Positions 37,449-58,252 of a stretch of 58,252 nt of DNA are shown here, one piece after another. Position 1 is the first letter of the stretch; each line of letters starts with the position of its first letter. The DNA lies in the IMG/VR virus record IMGVR_UViG_3300044802_000092, positions 1-58,252 of that record; one strand, given 5' to 3'. Below the pieces are notes generated by a model that was not told where the DNA came from, made no database searches, and saw only the letters and a list, made by a program, of their open reading frames with translations. Origin of the DNA: a virus (Duplodnaviria > Caudoviricetes). Both the position numbers and the translations under genes were made by a program.

Positions 37449-37462
37449 ACAGGGGTAAACAA

Positions 37463-37732: not shown

Positions 37733-37746
37733 CACGGGAAAACGAC

Positions 37747-39444: not shown

Positions 39445-39566
39445 CTGAAACATTCGAGTAATACCCAGAGAATATTCGGGGAACGTAATTGTGTTTCCCG
39501 TTTTCCTTTCGGTTTCAGGCGGAGAAATCAAAAGGTCCTTCAACCCTCCGTCAACTGAGGTTCCAA

Positions 39567-40268: not shown

Positions 40269-40280
40269 GTTGTGTATTCC

Positions 40281-40320
40281 AGCCCGTGCCCTTGACGCCG
40301 GGCACGGGCTGTGTTTTTTT
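40281..40320 (+). terminator. Intrinsic terminator
   Basis: AGCCCGTGCCC/GGGCACGGGCT stem followed by T7. Confidence 0.75.
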
Positions 40321-40345
40321 GTATTAACACTCACAGGAGGTCCCC

Positions 40346-40693
40346 ATGACCAGCGAAGATTCTACATCCAGCACCATCATCGCCGATAAATATAGAGGCA
40401 ACTACCAGGCAGTCAAGTTCGCAAAGGGCGGCAAAAACTACACTTCCCGTATCTCTAGCGATTCCGTTGCCTACGGCCTGCTTGGGGCCGACGACGGGGA
40501 ATTGAGGGATGTGCTGGAAGAGAACGGTGCCATCGGGCAAATCGAAGGCAAGACATATCCGAATCAGGGCATGTTTCGCATGGCCGCCGGGGCAATTCTG
40601 CGCGGAAAACTTCGGCGTGGCGAGTCCATTAAGATCAAGGGCAAGATCGTCAAGACCCTCGACCAGCAAGTGAAGTCCCCGTTCATCGACTAA
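40346..40693 (+). CDS. Hypothetical protein (paralog-like of 37747-38265)
   Basis: AGGAGG RBS; YPNQGMFRMAAGAILRG. Confidence 0.75.
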   Translation: MTSEDSTSSTIIADKYRGNYQAVKFAKGGKNYTSRISSDSVAYGLLGADDGELRDVLEENGAIGQIEGKTYPNQGMFRMAAGAILRGKLRRGESIKIKGKIVKTLDQQVKSPFID

Positions 40694-40725
40694 GTTTCGT
40701 TCGATCTGCCGGTTGAATGAAATTA

Positions 40726-40775
40726 GGGCCGCTGGAATATACAGGTTTCGCCTGTTCCAGCGGCCTCTATATATT
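40726..40775 (+). terminator. Terminator-like hairpin
   Basis: GGCCGCTGGAA/TTCCAGCGGCC with inner ACAGG/CCTGT, then AT-rich tail. Confidence 0.55.
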
Positions 40776-40780
40776 TGGGC

Positions 40781-40809
40781 TTGACGGCCGGACGCCGGTG
40801 TGGTAGAGT
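40781..40809 (+). promoter_or_regulatory. Sigma70-like promoter
   Basis: TTGACG-17 nt (ending TGTGG)-TAGAGT. Confidence 0.6.
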
Positions 40810-40815
40810 GTCCTT

Positions 40816-41127
40816 AAGGTCAGGGAGGCACGGATAGAGCCCCAGTCCAAGAAGCCGACCCTGACCGGCATATCGATTTTCGTGTTAGGGATTTCCTTGA
40901 ACACGAAAAGGTGTGGACCTGAGCTTCCTTGTTCCCTCAGGTCCACACTTCCCGTTTTCCGGTGCGGTGTTTTGACAGTTGACACCGCACAAACCGCCGG
41001 GCCAAGTATAGGCGCAGGCCCGGCGGCACTTATAGTTTGGCTGGCCCCGTATTCGGTCCCCCCGCTCGGAGCCAGTCTCAGGGCAGCTAGGTCTCTCGCG
41101 CCCCCGTGCCTCGGCCTAGCTGCCCGC
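40816..41127 (+). ncRNA. Candidate seven-hairpin structured RNA / long leader
   Basis: Seven consecutive 8-13 bp stems starting at the predicted TSS; no credible ORF. Confidence 0.65.
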
Positions 41128-41148
41128 CCCCTTGATAGGACAGTTTGC

Positions 41149-41478
41149 GTGCCCATCGTGTATGTCCCCCACCCTGTAAAAAACGACATCAGCGCGGCCA
41201 AGCTGTGGGGCTCTCTAGTTTTCATAAATAAGGGGTACGTTTACCCGGATGCAATAGATGATATAACCGATTCCATAGCCAGCGAGGTTTTTGACAACCT
41301 CGCAAAAGCCGCAAATTCTTTTACCCCCTCAGATTACCTGCTCATTGCGGGCGACCACCTCCAGATCGTTCAGTTTAGCGCCTTGTTGGGTGCCCGGTTT
41401 CCCTCCTTTTGGGCACTTCGGTACTTGCCCCACGTATCCGCGTACATGTCAGTTAGGATTCACACCGTTTCCAGATAA
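41149..41478 (+). CDS. Conserved phage hypothetical protein
   Basis: GTG start, VYVP...DISAAKLWG...DYLLIAGD. Confidence 0.7.
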   Translation: MPIVYVPHPVKNDISAAKLWGSLVFINKGYVYPDAIDDITDSIASEVFDNLAKAANSFTPSDYLLIAGDHLQIVQFSALLGARFPSFWALRYLPHVSAYMSVRIHTVSR

Positions 41479-41494
41479 ACAACAGGGTTGCGTC

Positions 41495-41523
41495 TTGACA
41501 GCCCTGTCGGGCTGTGCTACGGT
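41495..41523 (+). promoter_or_regulatory. Sigma70-like promoter
   Basis: TTGACA-17 nt (ending TGTGC)-TACGGT. Confidence 0.55.
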
Positions 41524-41567
41524 AAGGGTTAAGAGAGTCTTAACGGCGGCAAGTAAGGAGTACGGCG

Positions 41568-42125
41568 ATGGCAAAAAAACCCTCTACTCTGATAGATTTC
41601 AACACTTTACCCCAAAGTTTATTCGAGCGAAATAATCCCACCAAAAACATAGCGGCCGAACTCCTAGAACTGTCTAGACACCTTCAAGTTCTGCGCGCTC
41701 ACATGTTTGAGGCTGCCCGGTCAGGCTCCAACTCGTTAGCCCGGTCTTTCGTGACGCTCCATCAACTTAACGAAAACATGCAACTTCTTGTTAAGCAATT
41801 CAACAAGTTGATGGAACACTACAAAACCGTAGCCGTTCCGGACGTGCTTGACATGGCGGGGGTGACAAACGTGCCGTTGGCCGAGGGCTTCCGGGTGGGA
41901 ACTTCCAGCCGGTTGTGGGCTTCATTTCAGGTCGAAAATCAAGATGAAGGCTTTGAGTGGCTACGGCGCAATGGGATGGGAGACCTTATCAAGTTAACCG
42001 TAAACACTCAAACCTTATCCAGTGCAATCTCGCAACACCTAGACGAATATAGTGAGGAGCCGCCCCCTGAACTAATAAAAGTAACAGTCACGCAAAACAC
42101 TTCAGTAACTCGTACAAAGAAATAG
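41568..42125 (+). CDS. Conserved phage replication-module protein
   Basis: FEWLRxNGMGDLIKxTVNxQTLS motif; AAGGAG RBS. Confidence 0.75.
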   Translation: MAKKPSTLIDFNTLPQSLFERNNPTKNIAAELLELSRHLQVLRAHMFEAARSGSNSLARSFVTLHQLNENMQLLVKQFNKLMEHYKTVAVPDVLDMAGVTNVPLAEGFRVGTSSRLWASFQVENQDEGFEWLRRNGMGDLIKLTVNTQTLSSAISQHLDEYSEEPPPELIKVTVTQNTSVTRTKK

Positions 42126-42134
42126 GCAAACCCC

Positions 42135-43016
42135 ATGGCAAAGTCCCCCACAGCAGCTGCCCGCAGCACTCCAAACCTTCCCGCCACAACGGCCCCCTCA
42201 CACCTGGCACTGACCGACGAGGTGCCCGAGTTCATGTCAGGTGATGCGGGAAAAGGCCTGGAATCGGTCGGGGCTGAAGACGTTTCAGTTCCTCGTATCA
42301 AACTGATGCAAGGAACCTCCCCAGAACTGACGACGTTTGATGACTTACGGCAGGGCGATTTCTGGCATACGGCTAACGAAGTGAACCTGGGCCAAAAGTT
42401 CCTTGCCGTGCCCGTATACCGCGACAAGCGTTACATCCTGTGGCGGCCTCAAGATTCCGGCGGGGGCATCCTGGCCCGCGCGGACGACGGCAAAACTTGG
42501 ATTCCGGCCAACACTTCATTTGAAGTAAAGTTGGATGCAAAACAGGGAGGAAAAACTGTTACTTGGACCACCGGGGACACCGTGGAAAACTCCGGGCTAG
42601 CCCTGTGGGGAACCTCCGACCCTGAAGACTCTTCGTCCCCGCCCGCCGCCACTCTCATGTACAACTTCGTTCTGGTCTTTCCAGAGCACCCTGAGCTGGC
42701 CCCGGCAATTCTGACATTTCAGCGCTCAACCGTGGGGGTTGCTCGAAAGTTCTTAGGTACCCTCAAAACCCGCAACCGCCCGATCTTTGGTCAGGTTTAC
42801 GAGTTTTGCTCAGTAGGAGCGACCAACAAAGACGGGAAGCCGTTTAGGTCGATCGTTCCGCGCGCTGCGGGCCTGATTGCGGATAAGGCCCTTTACGACA
42901 GGTATAAGGGGATGTACGAAACCTTCGCAAAATCGGCACTTCAAATCCGTGACGTCGAAAGCTTGCAGGTGGAAGCCGAAGAAGAAACCGCAACCGTTGG
43001 CCGGCCGGAGTATTGA
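42135..43016 (+). CDS. Putative ssDNA-binding / replication accessory protein
   Basis: GLExVxxEDVxVPRIKLMQxxSPE; acidic C-terminal tail; position upstream of DNA polymerase. Confidence 0.6.
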   Translation: MAKSPTAAARSTPNLPATTAPSHLALTDEVPEFMSGDAGKGLESVGAEDVSVPRIKLMQGTSPELTTFDDLRQGDFWHTANEVNLGQKFLAVPVYRDKRYILWRPQDSGGGILARADDGKTWIPANTSFEVKLDAKQGGKTVTWTTGDTVENSGLALWGTSDPEDSSSPPAATLMYNFVLVFPEHPELAPAILTFQRSTVGVARKFLGTLKTRNRPIFGQVYEFCSVGATNKDGKPFRSIVPRAAGLIADKALYDRYKGMYETFAKSALQIRDVESLQVEAEEETATVGRPEY

Positions 43017-43366
43017 GCATGACAAACGAACCCGTTCCAACGCAAGGCGCGGCGCTGGCCGCACTAGAAGAACTGAAGCAAGTGGTGTTGGACCCGTTAA
43101 ACACCCTTACTTCAGCGCAGAAAGAACCGGGTTCCCGCCCGCCTTTGAAACTGCGGGTAGGGCCGGGGGTCCACCCTCTCTTTGCCAATACTTTTTCCGT
43201 CTGGAAAAGGGATGGAGTGCTGCGGTTGCTCGCTTGCGATAGCGCAAGCGAGGGATTAACCTCACCGGTCCACACCTTTTTGGTAATGACAGAGGCTGAC
43301 GCCGTGGCCCTATGCCGGTTAATCCTGAACCTGCCAGAGGAAAAGACAGATGGCTCTGAAAGATGA
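43013..43366 (+). CDS. Hypothetical protein
   Basis: Overlapping in-operon ORF. Confidence 0.6.
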   Translation: MSMTNEPVPTQGAALAALEELKQVVLDPLNTLTSAQKEPGSRPPLKLRVGPGVHPLFANTFSVWKRDGVLRLLACDSASEGLTSPVHTFLVMTEADAVALCRLILNLPEEKTDGSER

Positions 43367-43559
43367 TGAAATAAAAAAGCTAGAAGCAGTGCTGCTGGCG
43401 TTGGACGGCGTGGAACTCAAAGGCCGGTCCGAACAATTCGTGACAGACCAGCGCGCGCGCTACGGGCAATACGGGACAAATATGCTTCTTTCGCTGAAAC
43501 AGTGGGAGTGGCTGAAGAACCTCTACGAAGAACACGTAGGGAAGTGGGACGAAATCTAA
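43350..43559 (+). CDS. Hypothetical protein
   Basis: FVxDQxxR...LSxKQWxWL; in-operon. Confidence 0.7.
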   Translation: MALKDDEIKKLEAVLLALDGVELKGRSEQFVTDQRARYGQYGTNMLLSLKQWEWLKNLYEEHVGKWDEI

Positions 43560-43574
43560 CTAAACAGGTGAAAA

Positions 43575-43817
43575 ATGGTTGAAAAGGTTGATCTAGAGAA
43601 GTTCTCCACGTATGCCGGGTTTCTCGGATATCTTCGCCTTGCGCGGGTAAACTTGGTTGTGGCGGGTGAACGGGCAGTACGGCTGAAAACGGTGGATGTG
43701 CCGGAGCCTTACCGGCACATCACAGCTGGCCGCGACATCGAAGAACTGATCACTGAGCTTGACGATTTACTGAGGGAAATAGACCCTCTGATTGAGCTTA
43801 TGCAAGAAAGAAGGTAG
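43575..43817 (+). CDS. Hypothetical protein
   Basis: AGGTG RBS; in-operon. Confidence 0.6.
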   Translation: MVEKVDLEKFSTYAGFLGYLRLARVNLVVAGERAVRLKTVDVPEPYRHITAGRDIEELITELDDLLREIDPLIELMQERR

Positions 43818-43819
43818 CA

Positions 43820-45670
43820 ATGTCAAGCCGGTTTGACTACAGTGATGTGTTAGTTGAGGTGTTTAACCGGCTTGACCGGGCGTCTGAGGTGGTGGTTGAC
43901 GTTGAGACTTCTGGGTTAAGCCCATTGCGCAATCACATCGTGGGGTATGCGCTGTGTTTCGGCCCCGCCCCTCAAGATTCCTACTACTTGCCCGTGCGGC
44001 ATGCGCCGGGCGGCAACTTTACCGATATCCCCGCCCCCCAAACCGCAGATGGGTGGGATGGTACAACCCCGCTGTGGGAAAGACAGCTGCTGGACAGACT
44101 AAACCGGCAAAACCTCAGGGTTGTGGGCCACAACTTGAATTTCGACTTGAAGATGATGTGGCGGGCTGGATACCAGTGTCTGCGCTCTAGATATGAAGAC
44201 ACACAGCTCAACGCGGCTCTGCTCAACGAATGGCAGGGCAAGTTTTCCCTAAAGGCCTGCGCTGGCATAGCGGGGGTACAGGCAAAACTATCAGACGAAA
44301 TCTCGGCCCACATCCAAGCCCAGTTCCCCGACGAAAATCTCCCTGAGAAGGGAATAATGGCCCACTACTGGCGGCTAAACGGGGCGGACCCCGTGGCGGT
44401 CGACTACGCAAGGGGAGACGGTACGACCACGTGGCAGCTAGCTCAGTGGCAACGGGAAAGACTCGAAAAAGAGCAGCTATTAAAGGTTTGGGATATTGAG
44501 TGCCGGTTGATTCCCGTGCTAGTTCGACAAACCATGTTCGGGGTGCGGATCGACGAGGAGCGGCTGCACGGGCTGCAGACGGAGATAACTGCCAAGATCG
44601 ACGGGTTGATGTCAAAGTTTCCGGAAGGGTTCAACGTGCGGTCCCCCGGATGTGTCCGGGCCTGGTGTGAAGCCCACGGCAACACGGATTGGCCCCTTAC
44701 CCCCAAGAAACAACAGCCTTCGTTTCCGGAGAGCTGGCTAGAAACCCATGATGCGGGCCGGGCGATAGTAGAACTCCGGCAGATGCAGACTTTAATGAGC
44801 AGTTTCATCCGGCCGATGATGGAAACCCACCTGTTTAAAGGTAGAGTCCACACAACGTTCAATCAACTGAGAGGGGACGACTACGGCACTATTACAGGAA
44901 GGTTGTCGTCCAGTGACCCCAACCTTCAACAAATTCCGCACCATTCCAACCCGGCTTTGGGAGCGCTTTTCCGTTCCATATTCGTCCCCGACGAGGGGAA
45001 GATGTGGGCGGAGCGGGACTACAGCCAGGCTGAGCCCAGGCTACTTGCTTATTATTCCCGGTGTGCCGTTTTGTTAGACGATTATCGAAACAACCCGAAG
45101 GCCGACGCTCACGCCGCTGTAGCGCGGGCCACGGGCCTGGACAGGCAAACCGGTAAGCGCGTCAATCAAACGCTGCTCACCGGGGGAGGAAAGGGCGTTC
45201 TAACAACCAAATACAAGATAACCCCGGAAGACGCAAAAAAGGTGTGGAACGACTATTTCGAACGGCTCCCCGAAATTAAAACGCTCCAAACCGAATCCCG
45301 GCTAAAAATGCGTCGGCGGGGTTACGTGCGCACCCTGCTCGGCCGGAAGTGCCGGTTGCTTGACTTCAACAAAGCTTACGTGTCCATGAACCGGTTGTTA
45401 CAGGGGGGCAACGCGGACATAACCAAGTACAAGATGGTTCAGGTTGACGAGTATCTGGCCAGCGAGGGGCGGCCAATCGAGGTACTGCTCAGCATTCATG
45501 ACTCCCTCAACTTCCAGTTTTCTGAAGAATATAGACACATTTACGAGCGGTGCGGCGAGATCATGGCCGACTTCTCCTCCGGCCAGTTGATCGAGCTGGA
45601 TGTACCGATGAAAACCGATGCGGGTGAGGGGAAGAACTGGGCGGAAGCCACCTACGGAGAAAAGAAGTAA
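43820..45670 (+). CDS. Family A DNA polymerase (3'-5' exonuclease plus polymerase)
   Basis: VDVETSG, HNLNFD, TGRLSSSDPNLQQIP, DYSQAEPR, QGGNADI, SIHDS. Confidence 0.93.
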   Translation: MSSRFDYSDVLVEVFNRLDRASEVVVDVETSGLSPLRNHIVGYALCFGPAPQDSYYLPVRHAPGGNFTDIPAPQTADGWDGTTPLWERQLLDRLNRQNLRVVGHNLNFDLKMMWRAGYQCLRSRYEDTQLNAALLNEWQGKFSLKACAGIAGVQAKLSDEISAHIQAQFPDENLPEKGIMAHYWRLNGADPVAVDYARGDGTTTWQLAQWQRERLEKEQLLKVWDIECRLIPVLVRQTMFGVRIDEERLHGLQTEITAKIDGLMSKFPEGFNVRSPGCVRAWCEAHGNTDWPLTPKKQQPSFPESWLETHDAGRAIVELRQMQTLMSSFIRPMMETHLFKGRVHTTFNQLRGDDYGTITGRLSSSDPNLQQIPHHSNPALGALFRSIFVPDEGKMWAERDYSQAEPRLLAYYSRCAVLLDDYRNNPKADAHAAVARATGLDRQTGKRVNQTLLTGGGKGVLTTKYKITPEDAKKVWNDYFERLPEIKTLQTESRLKMRRRGYVRTLLGRKCRLLDFNKAYVSMNRLLQGGNADITKYKMVQVDEYLASEGRPIEVLLSIHDSLNFQFSEEYRHIYERCGEIMADFSSGQLIELDVPMKTDAGEGKNWAEATYGEKK

Positions 45671-45674
45671 TCCC

Positions 45675-46172
45675 ATGCTCGAAACAGACCTGCAGTCGGC
45701 CGTTGTAAAGTCCGTAATAACCGCAGGCGGGTCCGCACACAAGTTGAGCAACCGGTTTATTACCGGAGTGGCGGACCTGTTAATCAAGATTCCGGAGTTT
45801 GAGGCCTTCTGCCTGGAGGTGAAGTTTGGGCGGTACACCCCACCCCTCAGGGTTAAGGACGTGTCTGTGCCCCTCAAGACCCCCCAGTGGCGGTTCTTGA
45901 GGAATTACTGGCGGGCGGGCATGCCTACGGGGGTGTTGAGCTTTGCGGGACATAACTGTCAAAGCATGTGGGTTACGGTCCTGTGGGCCAACGACTTCCG
46001 CCGTTTTCGGACGGCGGACACGGAACCAGATTGGCTGTTTAAGATTCCGGCAGAGCGGTACGTCAAACTAGACCCCCGAACCCCGGAGTTCGTCGCTCTT
46101 CTCAAACAATCCCTCACCGCCCTTAATCAAACAACAGGAGGCCTGCACAATGTCCGTGATGGAGCTGATTGA
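45675..46172 (+). CDS. PD-(D/E)xK nuclease (VRR-NUC / Holliday junction resolvase-like)
   Basis: ETDLQ...GVADLL...LEVK...Q. Confidence 0.7.
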   Translation: MLETDLQSAVVKSVITAGGSAHKLSNRFITGVADLLIKIPEFEAFCLEVKFGRYTPPLRVKDVSVPLKTPQWRFLRNYWRAGMPTGVLSFAGHNCQSMWVTVLWANDFRRFRTADTEPDWLFKIPAERYVKLDPRTPEFVALLKQSLTALNQTTGGLHNVRDGAD

Positions 46173-46494
46173 AGAAAAAGCTAAAACACACGGGGACTTC
46201 ACCGACCAAGCTCAAATGGCGCAGGGCCTGAAGTCTGTCTTACATGCCTCCCGCCGTTGGGACGGCATGACCGCTGTCCAGCGGGAGGCGGCAGAAATGA
46301 TTTTACACAAGCTGGCGCGGGCATGCAGTGGGGACCCCTGGGCGCGGGACCATTGGCAGGACATCGCGGGGTACGCTACGATGGTGGCCGACCGCAGTCC
46401 ATGCGCGCACGCCGCAGAGATATACGGCGGCAGCGGCGGCGGCACAGCGGTGTGTCAGGGATGCGCCTCTCAGGGTGATGGAGTAAAGTTATGA
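46150..46494 (+). CDS. DUF6378-like all-alpha protein (possible dNTP pyrophosphohydrolase)
   Basis: THGDF, EAxEMIxHKLAR, GDP...DHWxDIAGYA. Confidence 0.75.
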   Translation: MSVMELIEEKAKTHGDFTDQAQMAQGLKSVLHASRRWDGMTAVQREAAEMILHKLARACSGDPWARDHWQDIAGYATMVADRSPCAHAAEIYGGSGGGTAVCQGCASQGDGVKL

Positions 46495-47564
46495 GTGTGT
46501 TAACTGACCTGTGTATCCCCGGTCGAGCATCGTTTATCGTCGGCGGGCAGTTTGGCAGTGAAGGAAAAGGGGCGGCGGCGGCGTTTTTGGCAACACGCCT
46601 AGCCACAGCCGGGATGAAATTCAACCTGCACACCACTAACGCCGGAGCGCAGGCTGGACATACTAGCATTCATATGGGGAAAACCCGAGTCACCAACTTC
46701 TTGCCTACCGCAGCAATTGTTGCGGCGGATCACGGTCCAGAGTTCCTGTCAACAATCTATCTCAACGCCGGGGCAATCATCAACCCAGACGCGTTGCTGG
46801 CAGAAGCGAGGGAGTTTATACCTCAATTTATGGATGGGAAGTTTTTTATTCACCCCAACGCCGCCGTTATTACCGAGGATTGTGTTGCGGTCGAAAGGAG
46901 TTCTACGTCTCCTGCAACAGCCATTTCTTCAACCCGCAAGGGGGTGGGTGAGGCCCTGGTCCGCAAGGTTTCCCGATGTGGGAATATTGCCAGCAATGTC
47001 GAAAGTTTGAAGCCGTTCATAGCAAACATAGACCTTAATCGGCAGCTGCGGGCCTGGACCTCCGTTTTAATTGAGGTCCCCCAGGGTCTGGGTTTGAGCC
47101 TAGATTCCCAGTTCTACCCCTACTGCACCAGCAGAAACTGTACGGTAGAAAAGGGGATGGACGACGCCCACATTCACCCCCACTTTTACGGGAACACCAT
47201 GCTCGTTCTTCGAACTTACCCCATCCGAGTTGGTAGTTTGGAAGGGCACTCTTCGGGAGGTTGTTACCCAGATCAGCGCGAAATATCCTGGGAGGAACTC
47301 GGTAGAAAGCCGGAATTGACTACAGTGACAAAGCGACAGCGGCGGGTCTTCACGTTTTCTATGACACAGGCCCGCGAGGCGATACGGCGGCTGCGCCCCA
47401 CCGTGATTTTTCTGACTTTTTGCGACTATCTGAAGGACAAGGTGGAGGCATATCGAATGGCTAAATCCTTGGCCCTTATGATTCAAACCGAGGGGCTGCC
47501 CGAGGCGGAAATCTATGGGGCATGGGGGCCAACAACCACGGACGTAACTGGGCTTGCTGTGTAA
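46491..47564 (+). CDS. purZ: Adenylosuccinate-synthetase homolog, PurZ0-like (2-aminoadenine biosynthesis)
   Basis: GGQFGSEGKG (Ser in place of the PurA catalytic Asp), QAGHT, YPYCTSR, TYPIRVG, ELTTVTKRxRR, LTFCD. Confidence 0.8.
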   Translation: MSVLTDLCIPGRASFIVGGQFGSEGKGAAAAFLATRLATAGMKFNLHTTNAGAQAGHTSIHMGKTRVTNFLPTAAIVAADHGPEFLSTIYLNAGAIINPDALLAEAREFIPQFMDGKFFIHPNAAVITEDCVAVERSSTSPATAISSTRKGVGEALVRKVSRCGNIASNVESLKPFIANIDLNRQLRAWTSVLIEVPQGLGLSLDSQFYPYCTSRNCTVEKGMDDAHIHPHFYGNTMLVLRTYPIRVGSLEGHSSGGCYPDQREISWEELGRKPELTTVTKRQRRVFTFSMTQAREAIRRLRPTVIFLTFCDYLKDKVEAYRMAKSLALMIQTEGLPEAEIYGAWGPTTTDVTGLAV

Positions 47565-47567
47565 GAC

Positions 47568-47617
47568 TTGACAAGAACGGGCTTGCGTGGTAGGGTGGAC
47601 GCTGTCTAAACTGTCAA
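47568..47617 (+). promoter_or_regulatory. Sigma70-like promoter plus AACTGTCAA box
   Basis: TTGACA-17-TAGGGT; box at 47609-47617. Confidence 0.65.
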
Positions 47618-47629
47618 CATAGGTGAACC

Positions 47630-47956
47630 ATGTCAGACATAGGGTACAATGTTCCCACCTTTACCATAACGACCGAAGTTCCCGAAAGTGTTATACATTA
47701 TCGGGAAGGACTACAAAAGTTCTTTGCCGGGATGGCCTTCAAGTTGCACGTAAATGCACACAAGCCTCCGCCGAAGATCGAAGAGCTTCCCACCCTGATG
47801 CTGCGCCTAATGGGCGAGGTGGGGGAGTTGATCGAACAGCTGATGAAAGACGACCGGAGCCCGAACGCCGCACATGAGGCGTTCGACACCGCCAATTTCG
47901 CGTTCTTGGTCTATTTGGCCCTGTTGACGCGGGATAACCCAGTCAAACTTCCATAA
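47630..47956 (+). CDS. MazG-like dNTP pyrophosphohydrolase, copy 1
   Basis: KLxVNxHK, LMGEVGEL, EAFDTANFA (ExxE...ExxD). Confidence 0.7.
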   Translation: MSDIGYNVPTFTITTEVPESVIHYREGLQKFFAGMAFKLHVNAHKPPPKIEELPTLMLRLMGEVGELIEQLMKDDRSPNAAHEAFDTANFAFLVYLALLTRDNPVKLP

Positions 47957-48024
47957 CTCTTTGGTGGGGGCGACGTTTCGCCCCTTCCCCTTTGTGTCGC
48001 TGATTTAACCAACGGAGTAGTTCT

Positions 48025-48381
48025 GTGTTGAATAAGACCCTCTCCCGGCCCTTAGCCGTCAACCTGCCTGTTTCAATCGAACACTACCGGCCCGAATTGG
48101 AGTCGTTTATAGCAGGCATGTTTCACAAACTTGCCGTGAACAGCCATAAGGATGCCCCCGCAAAACCCCAAATTCCAGAGTTGATGTTTCGAATGATGGG
48201 GGAAATCGGTGAACTGGTACAGCAAATACTTGCTGACAAATTTGATCCTAACTCCCTTCAAGAAGCCTTCGACGTTTCAAACTTCGCTTTCCTCACATAT
48301 TTGGCCCTGTTGAGGGACGGCGTAAAAGACCTCCGGACAACAGACCTCTTGCCAAACCTCCAAGCCAAGACGAGCACCTGA
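48025..48381 (+). CDS. MazG-like dNTP pyrophosphohydrolase, copy 2
   Basis: KLAVNSHK, MMGEIGEL, EAFDVSNFAFLTYLALL; clear paralog of previous gene. Confidence 0.7.
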   Translation: MLNKTLSRPLAVNLPVSIEHYRPELESFIAGMFHKLAVNSHKDAPAKPQIPELMFRMMGEIGELVQQILADKFDPNSLQEAFDVSNFAFLTYLALLRDGVKDLRTTDLLPNLQAKTST

Positions 48382-48445
48382 TGGCTGACCTTTTCGACAG
48401 CCACTAACCCTTTCATTCTTTCCCCTCACCCCGTAGGTTCCAACC

Positions 48446-50116
48446 ATGCCTTCTCTCAAACTTTCTGAACAACTCCATGCAGACAAATATAGGCAAACCG
48501 GCGAGACCTTTCGCAGCGCCTGTAGCCGGGTAGCCGATGCTCTCAAAGACGATGAGGGACACTATTTTGCGTTTCGGGAAATATTGAGGGAAGGCAGGTT
48601 TTCACCTCCCGGCCGAGTGTGGTCCGCCATCGGGGCGGCTAGAACTGCGACGGCCTACAACTGTTTTGTATCAAGGACCATCCCAGACAGCATAGCGGGA
48701 ATTATGGGGGCAGCCGTGGAGGCGGCCGAGACCCTCAGACTCGGTGGAGGCATTGGTTACGACTTTTCTACGCTGCGCCCTGCGGGGGAACGCATTGCCA
48801 GCCTGGATAGCAAGGCCAGCGGCCCAGTTTCGTTTATGGGTGTGTTCCATGCAGTGAATTCCACCATTCTCGGGGCAGGAAACCGCTCGGCTGCCCAAAT
48901 GGGGGTCTTGAGGGTGGGCCATCCAGACATTCTGGAGTTTGTACGGGCCAAACAGAACACCTCCGCTCTGTCCACCTTTAATCTGTCGGTAGCTGTAACA
49001 GATGCATTTATGGTGGCGGTAAAAGAAGACTTGCCGTTTCAGCTGACGTGGGGGGGCCGCACCTTCGGCACCGTTTCCGCCCGTAATCTGTGGGTGGAAA
49101 TCATGAGAGCCACTTGGGATTATGGGGAACCGGGAGTTTTGTTTATTGATACCATAAACAAAATGAACAACCTGTGGTACTGCGAGACGATCGATGCGAC
49201 TAATCCTTGCGGTGAACAGCCCTTGCCCTCGCACGGTGCGTGCCTCTTGGGAAGCTTCAACCTACCTGCCTACCTAGGATGGGCCAACAACACGTGGGTG
49301 TTCGATTTTACGCAGTTTAAAGCCGACATTCCCGTTGTAGTGCGCGCCATGGATAACGTGGTTGACCGTTCCCGATACCCCCTTCCTGAGCAGGAGAAAG
49401 AAGCTAAATCCAAGCGCCGAATGGGCCTCGGCGTGATGGGTTTAGCCAATGCGGTTGAAGCGTTGGGTCACCCTTACGGCTCTGAACTGTTCAAGGTTAT
49501 GACAGCTAGCATATTGACGGTTCTCCGGGATGGTTGCTATGACACCAGTACAGCCTTGGCTAAAGAAAAAGGTCCGTTCGAACTGTGGGATAAAGACAAC
49601 TATTGTAAGGGAGAGTTCATCCGGACACTTCCTCCGGAAATTCTTGAAAAGATGCGGGATTGCGGAATGAGGAACTCACATCTCCTTTCAATTGCCCCCA
49701 CCGGCTCAATCAGCCTAGTGAGCGATAATATATCTAGCGGCATCGAGCCGGTGTATGCGCTGGTCCAACGCCGAAAGGTGCGCATGGTAGAAGGCACAGT
49801 CTCGGCAGAGGTGGTGGACTATGGTAAGGCTCGGCTGGGAGTTGAGGGCAAGACGGCCGATCAATGTACTCTCGACGACCACTTGGGGGTGCTATTATTA
49901 GCACAAAAGTACACCGACAGCGCCATATCCAAGACAATAAATGTGGGGGACGACATAGGTTGGGAGGAATTCCAAAATGTGTACATGCGGGCTTGGGAAG
50001 GTGGCGCGAAGGGATGCACCACGTTCAGGGCCGCTGGAAAACGTGAAGGCATTATCAAAGACGCCGGAACGCCTGAACCCAAGAGTTGTGCAATAGATGG
50101 AAGTTGTGCGGACTGA
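48446..50116 (+). CDS. nrdJ: Ribonucleotide reductase, class II (B12-dependent) type
   Basis: NCFV, TNPCGEQPL, CLLGS, SIAPTG, AISKT; no small subunit gene nearby. Confidence 0.85.
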   Translation: MPSLKLSEQLHADKYRQTGETFRSACSRVADALKDDEGHYFAFREILREGRFSPPGRVWSAIGAARTATAYNCFVSRTIPDSIAGIMGAAVEAAETLRLGGGIGYDFSTLRPAGERIASLDSKASGPVSFMGVFHAVNSTILGAGNRSAAQMGVLRVGHPDILEFVRAKQNTSALSTFNLSVAVTDAFMVAVKEDLPFQLTWGGRTFGTVSARNLWVEIMRATWDYGEPGVLFIDTINKMNNLWYCETIDATNPCGEQPLPSHGACLLGSFNLPAYLGWANNTWVFDFTQFKADIPVVVRAMDNVVDRSRYPLPEQEKEAKSKRRMGLGVMGLANAVEALGHPYGSELFKVMTASILTVLRDGCYDTSTALAKEKGPFELWDKDNYCKGEFIRTLPPEILEKMRDCGMRNSHLLSIAPTGSISLVSDNISSGIEPVYALVQRRKVRMVEGTVSAEVVDYGKARLGVEGKTADQCTLDDHLGVLLLAQKYTDSAISKTINVGDDIGWEEFQNVYMRAWEGGAKGCTTFRAAGKREGIIKDAGTPEPKSCAIDGSCAD

Positions 50117-52424: not shown

Positions 52425-53962
52425 TGTCACGGCCCGTGTGGAGTCCCCAGCAGCTAGCAATCTTTGACTGGGTAAAGAAAGGTAGGGGCAACGCCTTTGT
52501 GGAGGCGGTGGCGGGGGCGGGAAAGACCACCACGTTGGTAGAGGTGTGTGCGTTGTTGCAAGGGCAAAGCGCGGCTTTTGCGGCGTTCAACAAAAACATT
52601 GCTGACGAAATCGGTGAACGCGTGCGGGCGCGGGGATGTTCAAGGGTGTTCACTGGCACTTTTCATAAGTTTGGGTTGGCCATTTGGCGCGGCACCTATC
52701 CGAAAGTCCAAGCCGGACCGGAAGCGGCCAAAGAAAAATCAAAGCTAGTCAACACCAAACTAAACACCCCCAAAAATCTTGTGTCCGTACTTGACAACCT
52801 AGTGGGCCAGGCCAAGCAGCGCGGCATAGGGACTCCGGGGCTGCCAATTGAGGATGCCGCATTGTGGCTGGCCATAATCGAGCATTTCGGGATAGATGAG
52901 GACCTTCCCGCATCTGTAAACGTAGACACCGTAATAGAAAGGGCCATGGCCGCCCTCAGACTGCACGTTGAAATGAAAGAATTGTTAGATTTCAACGATA
53001 TGGTATATATGCCCGTGCATGACGATATGCGGGGATTTCAAAACGATTGGCTGATGGTCGACGAGTGTCAAGACCTTAACGGATCGCGGCGCATGCTAGC
53101 TCGTCAGATGTTGCGTCCGGGGGGCCGGGCGATATTCGTTGGAGATAGATTTCAGGCGATTTTTGGGTTCAACGGAGCCGACGCCGACGCGGTCAACCAG
53201 CTTACTGCAGATTTTAATTGCGCCCGGCTGCCTCTCACCATTACTTACCGCTGCCCGAAAAAGGTCGTGGAGCAGGCCCAGGCGTACGTCCCTCACATTG
53301 AGGCCGCCAAATCCGCCCCTGAGGGAAAGGTGTCAGTTATCTCTCAGGCTGAACTATATAAGACTCAATTCGTCCCTGGGGAAGACGCCGTTCTTTGCCG
53401 CAATACGCGGCCCCTGGTGCGATTGGCTTATATTCTCATCGGGCGAGGGGTGCCCGCTTATGTTGAGGGAAGGGACATTGGTAAAGGTCTGCTAAAACTT
53501 GTCGCTAGGTTCGACCAGCCCTCATCCCTCAACGCAATGCTGGTCCGTCTAAGTGCATATTTAAGCCAGGAAACGGTAAAATTGCGGGCCGCAAATAAAG
53601 AAATGCAGGCCGCAGCGTTGGAAGACCGCGTGGAAACCCTTGAGGCAATCGCAGAAGAGTGTACCACAGTCGGGGGCCTCAAGGATCGCATTACCTCTTT
53701 GTTTGAGGATGGAGACCGGGCTTTGGGCCAGCGGCCGGTGCTTTCGACCGTACACAAGGCAAAGGGCCGCGAATGGTCGCGGGTGTTCGTGTTAGGTTAC
53801 GATCTATATATGCCGAGTTGTTACGCAACTAAAGACTGGGAAAAAGAGCAGGAAAACAACCTCGTATATGTAGCGTACACACGAGCTAAACGGGAACTGG
53901 TACTGGTAGAGGGGGAGAGGAAAAATGGTCACGGGGAAAATCTACGGAAAGTCAACCATTAA
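52424..53962 (+). CDS. UvrD/Rep-family SF1 helicase
   Basis: AVAGAGKTT, VDECQD, VGDxxQAIFGFxGA, STVHKAKGRE, YVAYTRA. Confidence 0.9.
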   Translation: MSRPVWSPQQLAIFDWVKKGRGNAFVEAVAGAGKTTTLVEVCALLQGQSAAFAAFNKNIADEIGERVRARGCSRVFTGTFHKFGLAIWRGTYPKVQAGPEAAKEKSKLVNTKLNTPKNLVSVLDNLVGQAKQRGIGTPGLPIEDAALWLAIIEHFGIDEDLPASVNVDTVIERAMAALRLHVEMKELLDFNDMVYMPVHDDMRGFQNDWLMVDECQDLNGSRRMLARQMLRPGGRAIFVGDRFQAIFGFNGADADAVNQLTADFNCARLPLTITYRCPKKVVEQAQAYVPHIEAAKSAPEGKVSVISQAELYKTQFVPGEDAVLCRNTRPLVRLAYILIGRGVPAYVEGRDIGKGLLKLVARFDQPSSLNAMLVRLSAYLSQETVKLRAANKEMQAAALEDRVETLEAIAEECTTVGGLKDRITSLFEDGDRALGQRPVLSTVHKAKGREWSRVFVLGYDLYMPSCYATKDWEKEQENNLVYVAYTRAKRELVLVEGERKNGHGENLRKVNH

Positions 53963-54140
53963 ATTGGTGCAGCGATGGAGGCGAAACGACGAAATATACG
54001 GTGAGTATCTGAGGGGCCGCACCCATAGGCAGTTGGCGGCGAAGTTTCGACTTTCGCGAAGCCGCATCGTCCAAATCATACAGGGGGAAGAATTAAATGG
54101 AAGAGGCACCCAAACTGAGCCTGGACGGGTACCTGACTGA
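53925..54140 (+). CDS. Small HTH protein (Mor-like)
   Basis: RNDEI...GRTHRQLAAKFRLSRSRIVQII. Confidence 0.65.
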   Translation: MVTGKIYGKSTIKLVQRWRRNDEIYGEYLRGRTHRQLAAKFRLSRSRIVQIIQGEELNGRGTQTEPGRVPD

Positions 54141-54354
54141 AGCCGAGCTATATCACATTTTAAAGCGGCGGCTAAAACCCCGCGAGGTATATTTAGCCGC
54201 CCGTGAACTGGGAATCAGCAGCTGCGTGTTGCATAGGATGTACAAACGTCAAATGGGAATATCGGTACGGGTGGCATGGTGGCTTGGGTACCGGTGTTTT
54301 AGGCCCATACCCAAGTTGAAAATCTACGTGCCTGTGCCGAAGGACGAGCTATGA
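54097..54354 (+). CDS. Small putative DNA-binding protein
   Basis: AARELGISS HTH-like segment. Confidence 0.55.
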   Translation: MEEAPKLSLDGYLTEAELYHILKRRLKPREVYLAARELGISSCVLHRMYKRQMGISVRVAWWLGYRCFRPIPKLKIYVPVPKDEL

Positions 54355-54652
54355 CCTATGAGTGCTATTGTGATGGGGACCTCCCGGGTGTTTCCAAACC
54401 TACTGCACCTGCCGCCGATGTCTGGATCTGAGGAATTGGGCGAAAATTTCCGCGCCTTGTTTCTGTTGGGCCTACGGTGATCTGCATGACGCGGTACGGG
54501 AACTGGTGGCGCAGGTTGCGCCGGACGTGCCAGGGGTCGCGCAAGAATGGGAGGCACTAATGATGGAAATCCGAAGGGCTAAAAACGTACCCAAAGCAAT
54601 ATGCGACACCGTGTCACATCAAGCGGTGTTTCCGAACAAAGCAAATACTTGA
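54351..54652 (+). pseudogene. Frameshifted Cys-rich (zinc-binding) phage gene
   Basis: MTYECYCDGDLPG continues in another frame as FQTYCTCRRCLDLRNW...CFCWAYG. Confidence 0.5.
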
Positions 54653-54677
54653 CAAACCCGGTCAAGTATGATAAAAT
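54647..54677 (+). promoter_or_regulatory. Strong early promoter with overlapping inverted repeat
   Basis: TTGACA-17-TAAAAT; TACTTGAC-N7-GTCAAGTA palindrome over the -35. Confidence 0.75.
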
Positions 54678-54781
54678 TAAAACATAGATAGGGCGGCGAG
54701 GGGAGCGGGGCAGGAGCCCACAAACCAGACCGGGAAGCCCAGGGTGAAACAGTCGAGCTGACCTCACCAGAAAACAACCAA

Positions 54782-54828
54782 TGTCGTGGGATGGGCGTCC
54801 CACCTGATGAGCCGAAAACGGCGAAACA
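54782..54828 (+). ncRNA. Hammerhead ribozyme (type III topology)
   Basis: GUC, stem I GUGGGAU/GUCCCAC, CUGAUGA, stem II GCCG-AAAA-CGGC, GAAA, 3-bp stem III. Confidence 0.75.
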
Positions 54829-54852
54829 AACTGTCAAACATAGGAAACTAAC

Positions 54853-55041
54853 ATGACTAACTACATCGTCACAATGCGCTTCCAGTTCCCCGCGTGGGAC
54901 GAAAAAGACGGTATCGAATTCGAGGTGTCGGCTGCCAATAAGCGTGAGGCTAATGCAAAAGGCCGCCGCCAAGCGAAAGATGCCGGCCATGCGAGAGCAA
55001 ACCGCGGCCTCTACTGGTTCAAAGCAACTGAGGCGCGCTAA
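54853..55041 (+). CDS. Small early protein
   Basis: ATAGGA RBS; MTNYIVTMRFQFPAWDE. Confidence 0.7.
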   Translation: MTNYIVTMRFQFPAWDEKDGIEFEVSAANKREANAKGRRQAKDAGHARANRGLYWFKATEAR

Positions 55042-55219
55042 GCGCCTCACCCCAAGAAAGGCAATGCGAGAGCAAACCGCGGCCTCTACTGGTTCAAAGC
55101 AACTGAGGCGCGCTAAGCGCCTCACCCCAAGAAAGGCAATGCGAGAGCAAACCGCGGCCTCTACTGGTTCAAAGCAACCGAGGCGCGCTAAGCGCCTCAC
55201 CCCAAGAAAGGCAATGCGA
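54989..55219. repeat. 75-bp tandem triplication
   Basis: Units start at 54989, 55064, 55139; one SNP in unit 3; bounded by ATGCGA. Confidence 0.92.
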
Positions 55220-55253
55220 ATGTACAAATGGATTGGATCTCACCGAAAAACAC

Positions 55254-55298
55254 TGTAGTAGGATGTATGTCCTACCTGATGAGCTGAAAATAGAAAGT
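55254..55298 (+). ncRNA. Degenerate hammerhead ribozyme copy
   Basis: GUA, stem I GUAGGAU/GUCCUAC, CUGAUGA; stem II and stem III damaged. Confidence 0.5.
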
Positions 55299-55320
55299 AA
55301 ACTGTCAAAAGGAACTGAAC

Positions 55321-55692
55321 GTGAAAAAGTGCCTCACCCAAACAACTGCCGATACGGCTCCCGTCCACCTGGCGATTTGGTACTTCGAGCGCGGCGTCAA
55401 GATCTATAAAATTTCGCCCTGCGTGTGTGGCGACCTTTCCGGCGTGCGCGGCGATCTTACCGGCGTGAGCGGCTATCTTTCCGGCGTGCGCGGCGACCTT
55501 ACCGGCGTGCGCGGCGACCTTACCGGCGTGTATGGCGATCTTACCGGCGTGAGCGGCGACCTTACCGGCGTGTATGGCGATCTTACCGGCGTGAGCGGCT
55601 ATCTTTCCGGCGTGCGCGGCGATTTGGATGACGCCGAAATAACCAACGCCGATCGCGAACTTGGTGTTAACATTGCTGACCTAATTCAGTAA
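55321..55692 (+). CDS. Heptapeptide-repeat protein (GDLTGVx)
   Basis: About nine 21-bp repeats GGCGA(C/T)CTTACCGGCGTG-NNN. Confidence 0.75.
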   Translation: MKKCLTQTTADTAPVHLAIWYFERGVKIYKISPCVCGDLSGVRGDLTGVSGYLSGVRGDLTGVRGDLTGVYGDLTGVSGDLTGVYGDLTGVSGYLSGVRGDLDDAEITNADRELGVNIADLIQ

Positions 55693-55761
55693 TAAATTTG
55701 AGGGGCTTCGGCCCCTCATTAGTCCATTTTTAGGACAAACCGTTAAACATAGGAGAATAAC

Positions 55762-56043
55762 ATGACTAAGACTATCGTTACTGCGGTTATCGTCACTGAA
55801 GACAGCACTGTTGGCTTCTCCACCTGCGTTGCGGAAGACGGATCGCTGGAATAGGTAATCGACGGTGCAATTGAAACGGCCATTGAGCAATACGAAGAGG
55901 GAACGAATTGCTCCGTTCCCTCCTTGCATCGGGTGATTGTTCACGTCGATACGGTACCCCCGTTAAAGCACCGTATCACTAGTGTCCACCATGTTTTACC
56001 TGAGCAGGACAACGACGAAGTAATTACAACGACCTTGTCATAG
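55762..56043 (+). pseudogene. ORF interrupted by in-frame TAG
   Basis: AGGAG RBS, ATG 55762, TAG at 55852 (codon 31), frame open to 56043. Confidence 0.6.
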
Positions 56044-56129
56044 CACATTAGGGGATTCGGGGCAAATCCCGAATCCCCCCCTTAGTCCCTTTGTAAAAAT
56101 GGACATTTAGTAAAACATAGGGGAATAAC

Positions 56130-56381
56130 ATGCGGAAGTACCTAACCCTCAACGTTCAGCTTACGGCTTCGGTTAATGATTCGGTCACCAGTCTGGATGC
56201 TGTCAACGCGTTCGTTAATTGGCTCAAATACTCGCTTGTTCAGGGTCAACCGCTGTCCCGGGACGACCGCATTGATCTTATATTCGAGAAGCTGGGTCAG
56301 ATTAAGCTGGAGGACCTGACATTTTATCCTTGGCCCGAAGCCTCGCTCCCGCCTAAACCGGAAGATCTCACCGGAGTCTAA
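56130..56381 (+). CDS. Hypothetical early protein
   Basis: AGGGG RBS after cassette element. Confidence 0.7.
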   Translation: MRKYLTLNVQLTASVNDSVTSLDAVNAFVNWLKYSLVQGQPLSRDDRIDLIFEKLGQIKLEDLTFYPWPEASLPPKPEDLTGV

Positions 56382-56458
56382 ATATTGCAAGGGAGGATGG
56401 GTCGCCCCATCCTCCTGTTAGTCCCTTTTCGGACAGACTGTCAACAAAGGAGAACGTG

Positions 56459-56620
56459 ATGTTCAGATGTTGCGTAGCCACGTTACTAATACTGGTTTTC
56501 ACGCTTTCGGCCCGGGCCAACTATGGCAGCCGGTGCGGATACTGGCGGGCCACTTCTTCGCAGGTGTGGCACCCGCTGTGTGGGGGAAAACCGGTCTGGT
56601 CTCCCGCAGGTCTCAAATAA
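56459..56620 (+). CDS. Small secreted Cys-containing peptide (53 aa), not in ORF track
   Basis: AAGGAG RBS; MFRCCVATLLILVFTLSARA-NYGSRCGYWRATSSQVWHPLCGGKPVWSPAGLK. Confidence 0.6.
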   Translation: MFRCCVATLLILVFTLSARANYGSRCGYWRATSSQVWHPLCGGKPVWSPAGLK

Positions 56621-56668
56621 ATTTGAGGGGCCGAAGCCCCTCGTTTGCTTAAACTAAAGGAGGTAATA

Positions 56669-56872
56669 ATGTTTAAGCTTGGTTGTGCAATATTGACACT
56701 AGGACTGCTATTGGGGGCGGCCCCAGCGGTGGCACAGTACCCGGACGTTTGTCCTAACCACTGTGCCCGTAAGTGCCTGCAGTGGGTGCAGACAGAGGCT
56801 TACGGCGCCCGGTGTGTGCGAGTTGCCTGTATCTGCTCGCCCCGCCCCTGGCGGCAGAATCCCCCATATTGA
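56669..56872 (+). CDS. Secreted six-cysteine defensin-like peptide
   Basis: AAGGAGGT RBS; signal peptide ending AVA; C-x3-CxxxC-x12-C-x4-CxC. Confidence 0.7.
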   Translation: MFKLGCAILTLGLLLGAAPAVAQYPDVCPNHCARKCLQWVQTEAYGARCVRVACICSPRPWRQNPPY

Positions 56873-56943
56873 GGTCTAATTTGAGGGGGTTTCGACCCCC
56901 TCGCTTGGTCCATTTTTGGACAAACTGTCAAAAGGAGATATCA

Positions 56944-57138
56944 ATGAAACTTACCATTGAAATGCAAATGGACACCCCGGCTTTTACTCGGGCAAGTAAT
57001 AATCTGGAAGTGGCCCGCATTTTGATCAATCTTGCCCAGATATTCATGATGGGGCAGCCCCTTGTCGAGGGAGACCACGACATTTTGAAGGACATTCAAG
57101 ACTTAAGAATCGGATATTACGAAGTGGAAGACATCTAA
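56944..57138 (+). CDS. Conserved small phage protein
   Basis: MKLTIEMxMDxxAF...EVARIL...D; AAGGAG RBS. Confidence 0.75.
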   Translation: MKLTIEMQMDTPAFTRASNNLEVARILINLAQIFMMGQPLVEGDHDILKDIQDLRIGYYEVEDI

Positions 57139-57206
57139 GCGTTCTGGGCGGGGGCTGTAGCCCTCGCCCTCTAATCTGTGTCTAACTTTACCCTTGAGGA
57201 GACAAA

Positions 57207-57563
57207 ATGTCCGACGAAACCACCCCTCCCGTTTCCGAGCCCGTAAATGGCAACCTGGCCAGCCCCAACGCTCTTTTTATGGGGCTTGTCAAACATTGCC
57301 ACGACCATCTGGGTGTATTGGTGAATGGTCTCAGCGTTGCAATGGCCACATACCCTAAGGAAGTGCAAGTGGCAGCGTTGGCTGCGGCGTGCGGTGAGGT
57401 GTTGAGTCAGGCTTCGCTTTTGTCCAACATTCAGCACACACTGGCCCTGCGGGCAAAAATACGGGGGATGTTCAAGCAGGCCCTAGCCCAGTATGCCCCC
57501 GCCATTCAGCCCGGCGGTCCCTTGGCGACCATGCCTCCCGTTCCTCCGGCCAACCGCAATTAG
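57207..57563 (+). CDS. Hypothetical protein
   Basis: GAGGAG RBS. Confidence 0.7.
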   Translation: MSDETTPPVSEPVNGNLASPNALFMGLVKHCHDHLGVLVNGLSVAMATYPKEVQVAALAAACGEVLSQASLLSNIQHTLALRAKIRGMFKQALAQYAPAIQPGGPLATMPPVPPANRN

Positions 57564-57895
57564 TGGGGTTTATTACTAAACGTCCACGTGGCCTGATCCA
57601 GGCGGGATGTGAGTTTGGTGAGTTCCTGATTTATTGTGGAATGTAGCCGGTCATTCGCCTGGATGTTTTCCCTCAGCTCTCGATTAAGGTTTCCTAACTG
57701 TTGTTCGAGCCCTTCTACCCGCCGGACAATGTCGGCGGTTTTCAACTCGCACGCACTAATTCGGCCGCCAAAGCCAAACACCCCCATTTGACTCAGCAAC
57801 ATCAAGAGCACCACGGCGAAGTTTATGAGGCCGATAGTGGCCGCAATTTCCCCCCGAAGTTTGTAAACCCATTCTTTCATTTCGGTGCTTGACAT
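57560..57895 (-). CDS. Membrane-anchored coiled-coil protein (possible lysis accessory)
   Basis: One TM helix then heptad coiled coil; late-strand orientation. Confidence 0.6.
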   Translation of the reverse strand: MSSTEMKEWVYKLRGEIAATIGLINFAVVLLMLLSQMGVFGFGGRISACELKTADIVRRVEGLEQQLGNLNRELRENIQANDRLHSTINQELTKLTSRLDQATWTFSNKPH

Positions 57896-57931
57896 GGTCC
57901 CCGGCCTCTTAACTTAAGGAAGAATCTTAAC

Positions 57932-58225
57932 ATGGTAGACGTGTTGTTAGTTCGAAGAGCCGATGCCGGCCGCAGGGGATACATCTATGACATATATTTA
58001 GGCCCTGAAGTTTTGGCAAGCGGAGTCAGCCCCGAATACAAAACATGCCGGGGGCTGTTAGCCAGGGGTTATAACGGAAAAGTCAGATTTTGGAGGGCGG
58101 GCAGGAGGAGTCACGATTTTGAAATGGACATATCAAAATGTGCGGGTCGAACCCTTAGTGAGGGACAACACGGATTCAGCCTCGGCCGGTGGGCACCCTT
58201 CGAAGGGGTCTCAGGGGTTGGTTAA
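57932..58225 (+). CDS. Hypothetical protein
   Basis: AAGGAG RBS; CRxLLARGYxG...TLSEG...RWAPF. Confidence 0.7.
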   Translation: MVDVLLVRRADAGRRGYIYDIYLGPEVLASGVSPEYKTCRGLLARGYNGKVRFWRAGRRSHDFEMDISKCAGRTLSEGQHGFSLGRWAPFEGVSGVG

Positions 58226-58252
58226 CGCGCGCCGCCCCGCGATATCGGTCGA

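Follow-up and report, generated by a model that had tools for sequence, protein, structure and literature searches.

The hammerhead ribozymes of viroids and plant satellite RNAs process the intermediates of rolling-circle RNA replication, and those viroid hammerheads whose stem III is short reportedly work as dimers. In bacteria, hundreds of hammerheads have been described, many of them encoded near prophage integrases (Perreault et al. 2011, PMC3088659). According to that survey, multiple hammerheads flank genes or short gene blocks in prophages, such arrays cleave in vitro (one array also in E. coli), and their suggested function is the processing of long phage transcripts into gene-length mRNAs. 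The survey also describes a hammerhead variant of the haloviruses HF1/HF2, located 13 nt upstream of the ORF that opens an early transcript; the 5′ end mapped there is at most 3 nt from the cleavage site. A 2019 review (PMC6765202) still calls the purpose of phage and bacterial hammerheads undefined. Here, we describe an element of this widespread phage-associated group, and thus of an already known type (Perreault 2011), that is encoded in the leader of a small phage gene. We will compare it with its relatives, weigh whether it is likely to be active, and discuss how it may contribute to the organization of phage transcripts.

The window (the whole stretch of DNA analysed) comprises 58,252 bases and is a complete or nearly complete viral record, with a linear topology assigned and a completeness rating of 98%. 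Its minus strand carries tail sheath, baseplate, tape measure, portal, major head protein and terminase genes between 451 and 33895 (PHROG matches), a structural set that, at the level of these matches, shows a myovirus. On the plus strand, PHROG matches between 35196 and 53962 comprise primase, a PolA-type polymerase, ribonucleotide reductase, two helicases and a PurZ-like adenylosuccinate synthetase homologue. The latter homologue lies near the PolA-type polymerase (46491-47564, and 43820-45670), resembles a PHROG labelled '2-aminooxy adenylosuccinate synthetase' (E=6e-55) and matches Pfam Adenylsucc_synt. A PurZ-like synthetase together with a PolA-type polymerase is a combination typical of phages with 2-aminoadenine (Z) genomes. 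The small ORFs from 54.6 kb to the right end are without Pfam match, and no phage RNA polymerase was found among the 39 ORFs scanned. BLAST searches of the INPHARED phage collection with 54000-56500 and 30000-50000 returned no match.

The small genes at the right end are preceded by a sigma-70-type promoter (Table 1), the sole 11/12 match in the whole window that combines a 17-nt spacing with the TG of an extended -10 element. The other 11/12 site is on the minus strand (14551-14522) and has an 18-nt spacing without TG, and a promoter scan of 53800-58252 returned the right-end promoter as its single promoter-like site. Its -35 hexamer and spacer are spanned by a 9-bp inverted repeat, ATACTTGAC-N7-GTCAAGTAT (54645-54669), a palindrome that looks like an operator. 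Placing the transcription start about 7 nt past the -10 hexamer gives a predicted leader in which the cleavage site of the hammerhead would fall about 100 nt downstream of the start, which bears out the initial annotation in placing the ribozyme about 100 nt after the strongest promoter. The part of this predicted fragment at 54691-54743 is G-rich, with GGG/GGGG runs (GGGCGGCGAGGGGAGCGGGGCAGGAG...GGG...GGG). On the other side of the ribozyme, its last nucleotide (54828) is followed after 14 nt by the AGGA of the Shine-Dalgarno (SD) sequence and after 24 nt by the ATG of a 62-aa ORF, in line with the close proximity to a start codon that had been claimed. This ORF has no Pfam match, and its designation in the initial annotation as the 'first early gene' is an assumption.

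Several repeats are found in the same region. In a tandem repeat at 54985-55219 (75-bp unit, 3.1 copies, 98% matches), the 3′-terminal part of the 62-aa ORF is duplicated along with a GAGGCGC-GCUAA-GCGCCUC hairpin that holds the stop codon in its loop. The last part of the repeat unit (CCUCACC..AAA..CAAUG) is similar to the sequence immediately upstream of both hammerhead copies described below. The next ORF (55321-55692), which matches neither Pfam nor PHROG, contains a 21-bp repeat (9.7 copies, 55421-55623) encoding heptapeptides of the G-D/Y-L-T/S-G-V-R/S/Y type. On the opposite strand, an open frame of 202 aa (54619-55227) runs across the ribozyme, the 62-aa ORF and the tandem repeats, and is probably an artefact of the repeats.

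The hammerhead consists of three helices around a consensus core, and every structural element that had been reported at this position (complete core, GUC, 7-bp stem I, CUGAUGA, 4-bp stem II and 3-bp stem III) is found in the letters at 54782-54828. Stem III is formed by U54782-G54783-U54784 with A54828-C54827-A54826, resulting in 3 bp, and is followed by the cleavage-site base (position 17), C54785; cleavage would fall between C54785 and G54786. Stem I (GUGGGAU-GGGC-GUCCCAC) pairs 54786-54792 with 54797-54803, giving 7 bp including a closing U.G around the loop GGGC. Core positions C3 U4 G5 A6 N7 G8 A9 read CUGAUGA (54804-54810), stem II pairs GCCG with CGGC (54811-54814 with 54819-54822; 4 bp) around the loop AAAA, and G12 A13 A14 read GAA (54823-54825). 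The A15.1-U16.1 pair is A54826-U54784, and position 17 is not G. Both further core-adjacent pairs, G54811-C54822 (10.1-11.1) and G54786-C54803 (1.1-2.1), are Watson-Crick; the absence of a mispair at these positions is a criterion used in PMC3088659. No plus-strand ORF of at least 30 aa overlaps the hammerhead. The sequencing runs listed for this stretch include no RNA run; DNA contigs from three of the runs show zero differences from the window across the hammerhead. Short contigs identical to the window also occur in two further runs of other studies, both labelled peat metagenome (X3 over the hammerhead, X2 over the decayed copy; positions 54781-54931, 55160-55310 and 55368-55518), and the module is thus not confined to one data set.

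Table 1. Coordinates of the leader elements in the 58,252-base window.
Feature	Position	Strand	Support or remark
Sigma-70-type promoter TTGACA-17-TAAAAT, extended -10 TG	54649..54677	+	best consensus match in window
Predicted 5′ cleavage fragment, G-rich, ~100 nt, ending at C54785	54685..54785	+	start inferred from promoter
Type III hammerhead ribozyme	54782..54828	+	sequence, RF00008, models R1 and R2
AACUGUCAA box, repeated leader element, outside the ribozyme	54829..54837	+	
62-aa ORF behind the ribozyme	54853..55041	+	SD AGGA 54842-54845; PHROG 13774 (function-unknown family)
Decayed paralogous hammerhead, before the next ORF (GTG 55321)	55250..55301	+	R1 38.1 bits, R2 37.1 bits
AACTGTCAA copies	37724, 45954, 47609, 54829, 55300, 56923 (+); 40972 (-)		

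In the Rfam database, the element corresponds to RF00008 (Hammerhead_3, clan CL00010), which it matches at model positions 5-50 of 54. Its 34.2 bits lie below the gathering score of 48.5, an operational cut-off rather than a structural feature, so a default (gathering) Rfam scan of the window is blank and the match shows only under E-value thresholds. This blank scan is what would be expected if the letters resembled the hammerhead consensus by chance, with no evolutionary relation to ribozymes. However, RF00008 is the best match in the window when both strands of its full length are searched with all 4227 families (E=0.0014; E=8.2e-6 in a 351-nt search). Models built from the relatives described below score the element far higher, with 66 bits for model R1 and 59.5 bits (E=1.3e-14) for the leave-one-out model R2, from which the window was excluded; the best match of R2 in the window other than the hammerhead copies reaches 14 bits. 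Together with a paralogous copy in the same genome that carries a compensatory change in stem I, this leaves a coincidental resemblance with next to no probability, and the leave-one-out result effectively refutes it.

The paralogous copy was found by comparing the window with itself, where 54760-54838 is repeated at 55236-55309 with 73% identity. It retains GUA at the cleavage site, stem I (GUAGGAU-GUAU-GUCCUAC), CUGAUGA and GAAA, and its stem I differs by one compensatory change from G-C to A-U. Two deletions of 2 nt each have left the 3′ strands of stems II and III 2 nt short. We considered and rejected the possibility that this copy acts as a non-canonical ribozyme, as G10.1 is without partner and stem III cannot form. 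The decayed copy also has the box described below at its 3′ side (box copy at 55300). As ribozyme and box are repeated together, the whole module was duplicated, with one copy no longer being a canonical ribozyme.

Relatives of the hammerhead were collected from viral contigs at two levels of stringency. A scan for the exact core and stem II resulted in a single locus, L009, whose stem I differs from that of the window by three compensatory pairs. A degenerate pattern, in which only the tip of stem I and the core were fixed, resulted in 33 loci and 27 distinct sequences including the window. In these 27 sequences, stems I and II are 100% paired at the pattern-free positions, with all four Watson-Crick types represented; overall, 96.1% of the cells of the alignment are paired, as compared to 29-44% in controls where the partners were slid by 1-3 columns. 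R1, built from this pattern-found set, gives 70 matches in 37 loci, some of which do not fit the pattern. The R2 alignment, without the window and without loci of duplicate sequence, comprises 48 matches, of which 46 differ in sequence, drawn from 25 of the 33 viral loci that carry hammerheads. Among the 46 distinct relatives, 96.5% of cells are paired (31-46% in slid controls) and 13 of 16 pairs have changes on both sides, in an alignment that was fitted to the model and is therefore biased towards its structure; their covariation score was reached by 0 of 500 shuffles. The cleavage-site base is C, A or U, and never G, in every aligned member of the three alignments. A cleavage-site base other than G is the rule expected of catalytically competent hammerheads.

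These relatives share a stem I tip of the form GGAU-GNGU-GUCC with a closing U.G (44 of 46 relatives), a 4-bp stem II and an A-rich loop II. These loop features are conserved in the family, and a tertiary contact between loops I and II would permit activity at low Mg2+. Stem III usually has 4-6 bp and is exactly 3 bp long in 4/46 viral relatives and 13/95 relatives from genome assemblies. In the 16 related viral loci tested, no hammerhead reached the Rfam gathering score. Every viral record (33/33) has at least one copy; the 100%-complete records (56-64 kb) have 1-4, and the maximum in any record is 5. Where loci of the fetched set contain multiple copies, these are on one strand and clustered within a few kb. 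In the 51 distinct contexts inspected beyond the window, the usual position of the ribozyme is 17-35 nt past a stop codon and directly behind a strong hairpin, and an SD sequence and start codon follow 11-28 nt after it in 13 of these contexts. The hairpin on its 5′ side is in very many cases of the GUGUCUUCAAAGACAC type, which additional G/C pairs often bring to between -12 and -22 kcal/mol, and it abuts stem III in most viral relatives (L010, L011, L021-L024, L026-L028, L031-L034, L036, L037 and others). The GUGUCUUCAAAGACAC-type hairpin and the hammerhead look like a single cassette. Upon cleavage, the upstream mRNA of such a locus would end in the hairpin plus a few nucleotides, and the RNA on the other side of the cut would have the stem I hairpin at its start.

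Besides viral contigs, the pattern also matches prokaryotic assemblies. Searching one genome per species resulted in 67 stretches (L042-L108), in which R2 finds 96 copies, often several per locus. According to the record titles, 54 of the stretches have names of Patescibacteria type and 9 have names of other kinds, with 4 unnamed. Most of the 35 flanking ORFs inspected at 10 of these loci have no Pfam match, and the few matches obtained are to domains typical of phages or mobile elements (phage zinc finger, Bro-N, STIV B116-like, PcfJ, helicase). The subgroup as defined by the U.G-closed stem I tip, the abutting hairpin, the sub-threshold Rfam scores and its frequency in Patescibacteria assemblies may be new, although the supplementary alignments of PMC3088659 may list it.

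The copy in the window deviates from this arrangement: instead of directly following a stop codon and a strong hairpin that abuts it, as is usual in the family, it is part of a promoter-proximal leader. It is separated by 125 nt from the nearest upstream long open frame, and 13 nt intervene between the end of the nearest hairpin (-8.9 kcal/mol) and stem III. L009 is likewise located in a long leader. Comparing the flanks of the hammerhead-bearing viral loci with the window (blastn, and tblastx at E<1e-8) revealed no similarity beyond the ribozyme. Four viral loci with relatives of the upstream helicase have no hammerhead detectable with RF00008 or R1, and none of 26 metagenome loci with such relatives has a convincing one (at most 42% identity for these helicase relatives). 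A single 21.9-bit match, in L116, is located inside the helicase match and was taken as chance. Seven viral loci with homologues of the 62-aa protein (41-59% identity) gave no hammerhead at E<=1 with filters off. With no hammerhead beside relatives of either neighbour, the ribozyme is not tied to either neighbouring gene. This agrees with PMC3088659, where the flanked genes are not constant either.

Taken together, we tentatively propose, as one possible reading that we hold with less than even confidence, that the subgroup forms a mobile 'hairpin plus hammerhead' punctuation cassette that is missed at the Rfam cut-off and spreads between phages and prophages with no other relationship, chiefly those of Patescibacteria. 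Such a cassette would set the 3′ ends of mRNAs (hairpin plus cyclic phosphate) as well as 5′-OH ends, without the need for terminators or host RNases. In the window, it would have been recruited behind a promoter, where cleavage would also free a discrete G-rich RNA of ~100 nt. We base this proposal on the predominance of Patescibacteria-type names among the genome stretches (54/67), the absence of any flank similarity between the viral loci and the window beyond the ribozyme, the presence of the abutting hairpin in most relatives, and the fact that, among the papers listed in our literature searches, we found none linking hammerheads with Patescibacteria.

The ribozyme is directly followed by the box listed in Table 1 (AACTGTCAA), which occurs in seven copies in the window as compared to 0.28 expected, six of these on the plus strand. 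Of the plus-strand copies, four have a start codon 9-16 nt downstream, and another has an ATG within 3 nt that is not a called ORF start. The copies at 37724 and 47609 are located just downstream of TTGACA-type promoters, and the copy at 56923 is behind a small terminator-like hairpin (GUCC...GGAC). Looser leader versions (AACATAGG plus AATAACATG) are present at 55746 and 56114. The box is a leader element of the phage in its own right, and it may be a shared translation-initiation or regulator-binding element. In the leader of the 62-aa ORF, GUCA of the box (54833-54836) is predicted to pair with UGAC (54854-54857), which overlaps the ATG, with a probability of ~0.9, thereby enclosing the SD sequence in a small hairpin.

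This predicted pairing bears on a regulatory role that the initial annotation had assigned to the box. Here, the ACA strand of stem III would alternatively pair with UGU of the adjacent AACUGUCAA box, and binding of a hairpin loop (hairpin 4) to the box would decide whether the ribozyme folds. ACA (54826-54828) and UGU (54832-54834) are indeed complementary in their letters, and the over-representation of the box would fit a regulatory element. However, the resulting hairpin (3 bp, 3-nt loop) has a predicted free energy of +1.4 kcal/mol and a probability below 0.01 in the full leader, where GUCA of the box is instead predicted to be engaged with the start codon. The loop binding fares no better, as no plus-strand complement of the box (with at most 2 mismatches) is present within 54027-56099. 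Moreover, the five other plus-strand copies of the box are without an intact ribozyme, and the box follows stem III in 0/26 aligned relatives. A switch through the box is thus not supported, and we consider it highly improbable.

Setting the switch aside, the reading that we favour and consider likely is that the element is a functional type III hammerhead in the 5′ UTR of the first gene of the right-end cluster of small genes of this ~58-kb myovirus. Transcripts would originate at the right-end promoter or reach the leader by read-through from the replication genes upstream. The RNA would then fold into a three-helix junction and self-cleave after C54785. The upstream piece would end in a 2′,3′-cyclic phosphate and be about 100 nt long if promoter-derived, while the downstream mRNA would carry a 5′-OH followed by the stem I hairpin, its first nucleotide lying 67 nt ahead of the ATG. 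This would probably produce an mRNA that is uncoupled from the upstream RNA and has a defined, hairpin-capped 5′-OH end, which would alter mRNA stability or translation. Homology and covariation make such self-cleavage of the leader a well-founded expectation, and we judge that the copy in the window probably cleaves in vivo.

Secondary-structure prediction calls for some caution. For the 56-nt element, nearest-neighbour folding puts the active fold 2.0 kcal/mol above the minimum; in leader contexts, the difference is 2-4.7 kcal/mol. Stem III, with only 3 bp, has a pairing probability below 0.01, and the probability of stem I drops to 0.37-0.68 in the full leader because the G-rich leader competes. 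A pairing that would mask the SD sequence (CC.AAUGU with ACAU.GG of the ribosome-binding site) was seen in a 71-nt fold and dropped at longer contexts, as its probability was 0.06-0.07 in 54685-54845 and 0.001 in the full 54685-54870 leader. Nearest-neighbour models ignore the tertiary contacts that stabilize natural hammerheads, so the unfavourable fold is a caution and not a refutation.

These folding results would also fit an inactive or barely active relic, in which a short stem III and a competing G-rich leader are taking the element towards the state of the decayed copy. Consistent with this, the scores of the window copy (59.5-66 bits) are towards the bottom of the family's range, typical members reaching 70-80 bits, parts of stems II and III are missing from the paralogue located 470 nt downstream, and there is no conservation beside homologues of either neighbouring gene. 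Nevertheless, the window copy retains what the decayed copy has lost: all bases of the catalytic core and the three core-adjacent pairs are intact, and stems I and II are perfect. The 3-bp stem III recurs in the family (4/46 and 13/95), and the tertiary stabilization of natural hammerheads escapes the thermodynamic models that disfavour the active fold. We therefore regard a relic as unlikely and retain the functional hammerhead as our preferred interpretation.

The locus offers a clean, testable example of a consensus hammerhead placed after a strong promoter and ahead of a ribosome-binding site, in a phage genome of lytic type. The intact and naturally decayed copies, located before two consecutive genes, provide a built-in comparison for effects on mRNA stability and translation. 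At a wider scale, a covarying hammerhead subgroup is missed at the Rfam threshold although it occurs frequently in Patescibacteria assemblies, in regions that are phage-like. This matters for annotation and for understanding the transcript organization of these phages.

Compared with the type III hammerheads of viroids and plant satellite RNAs (RF00008), the ribozyme in the window has an identical core and the same topology, with stems I and II capped and stem III open, whereas it is located in a predicted DNA-phage mRNA, has different loops and scores below the family cut-off. Its position in a 5′ leader shortly before an ORF resembles that of the HF1/HF2 variant described in PMC3088659. The latter, however, is a core variant in an archaeal virus that precedes a helicase gene in a polycistronic early transcript, while the hammerhead in the window has a consensus core and precedes a 62-aa ORF by 24 nt. 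With the prophage and phage hammerheads of the same survey, it shares the catalytic core and a proposed role in cutting transcripts, and it differs from them in lying ~100 nt behind a promoter instead of directly behind a gene and hairpin. The subgroup is set apart from that collection by its GGAU-GNGU-GUCC tip, its 4-bp stem II and scores below the Rfam cut-off in 16/16 loci tested. Its members nonetheless resemble the arrays reported there, as they too occur in several copies on one strand, between small phage genes of varying identity.
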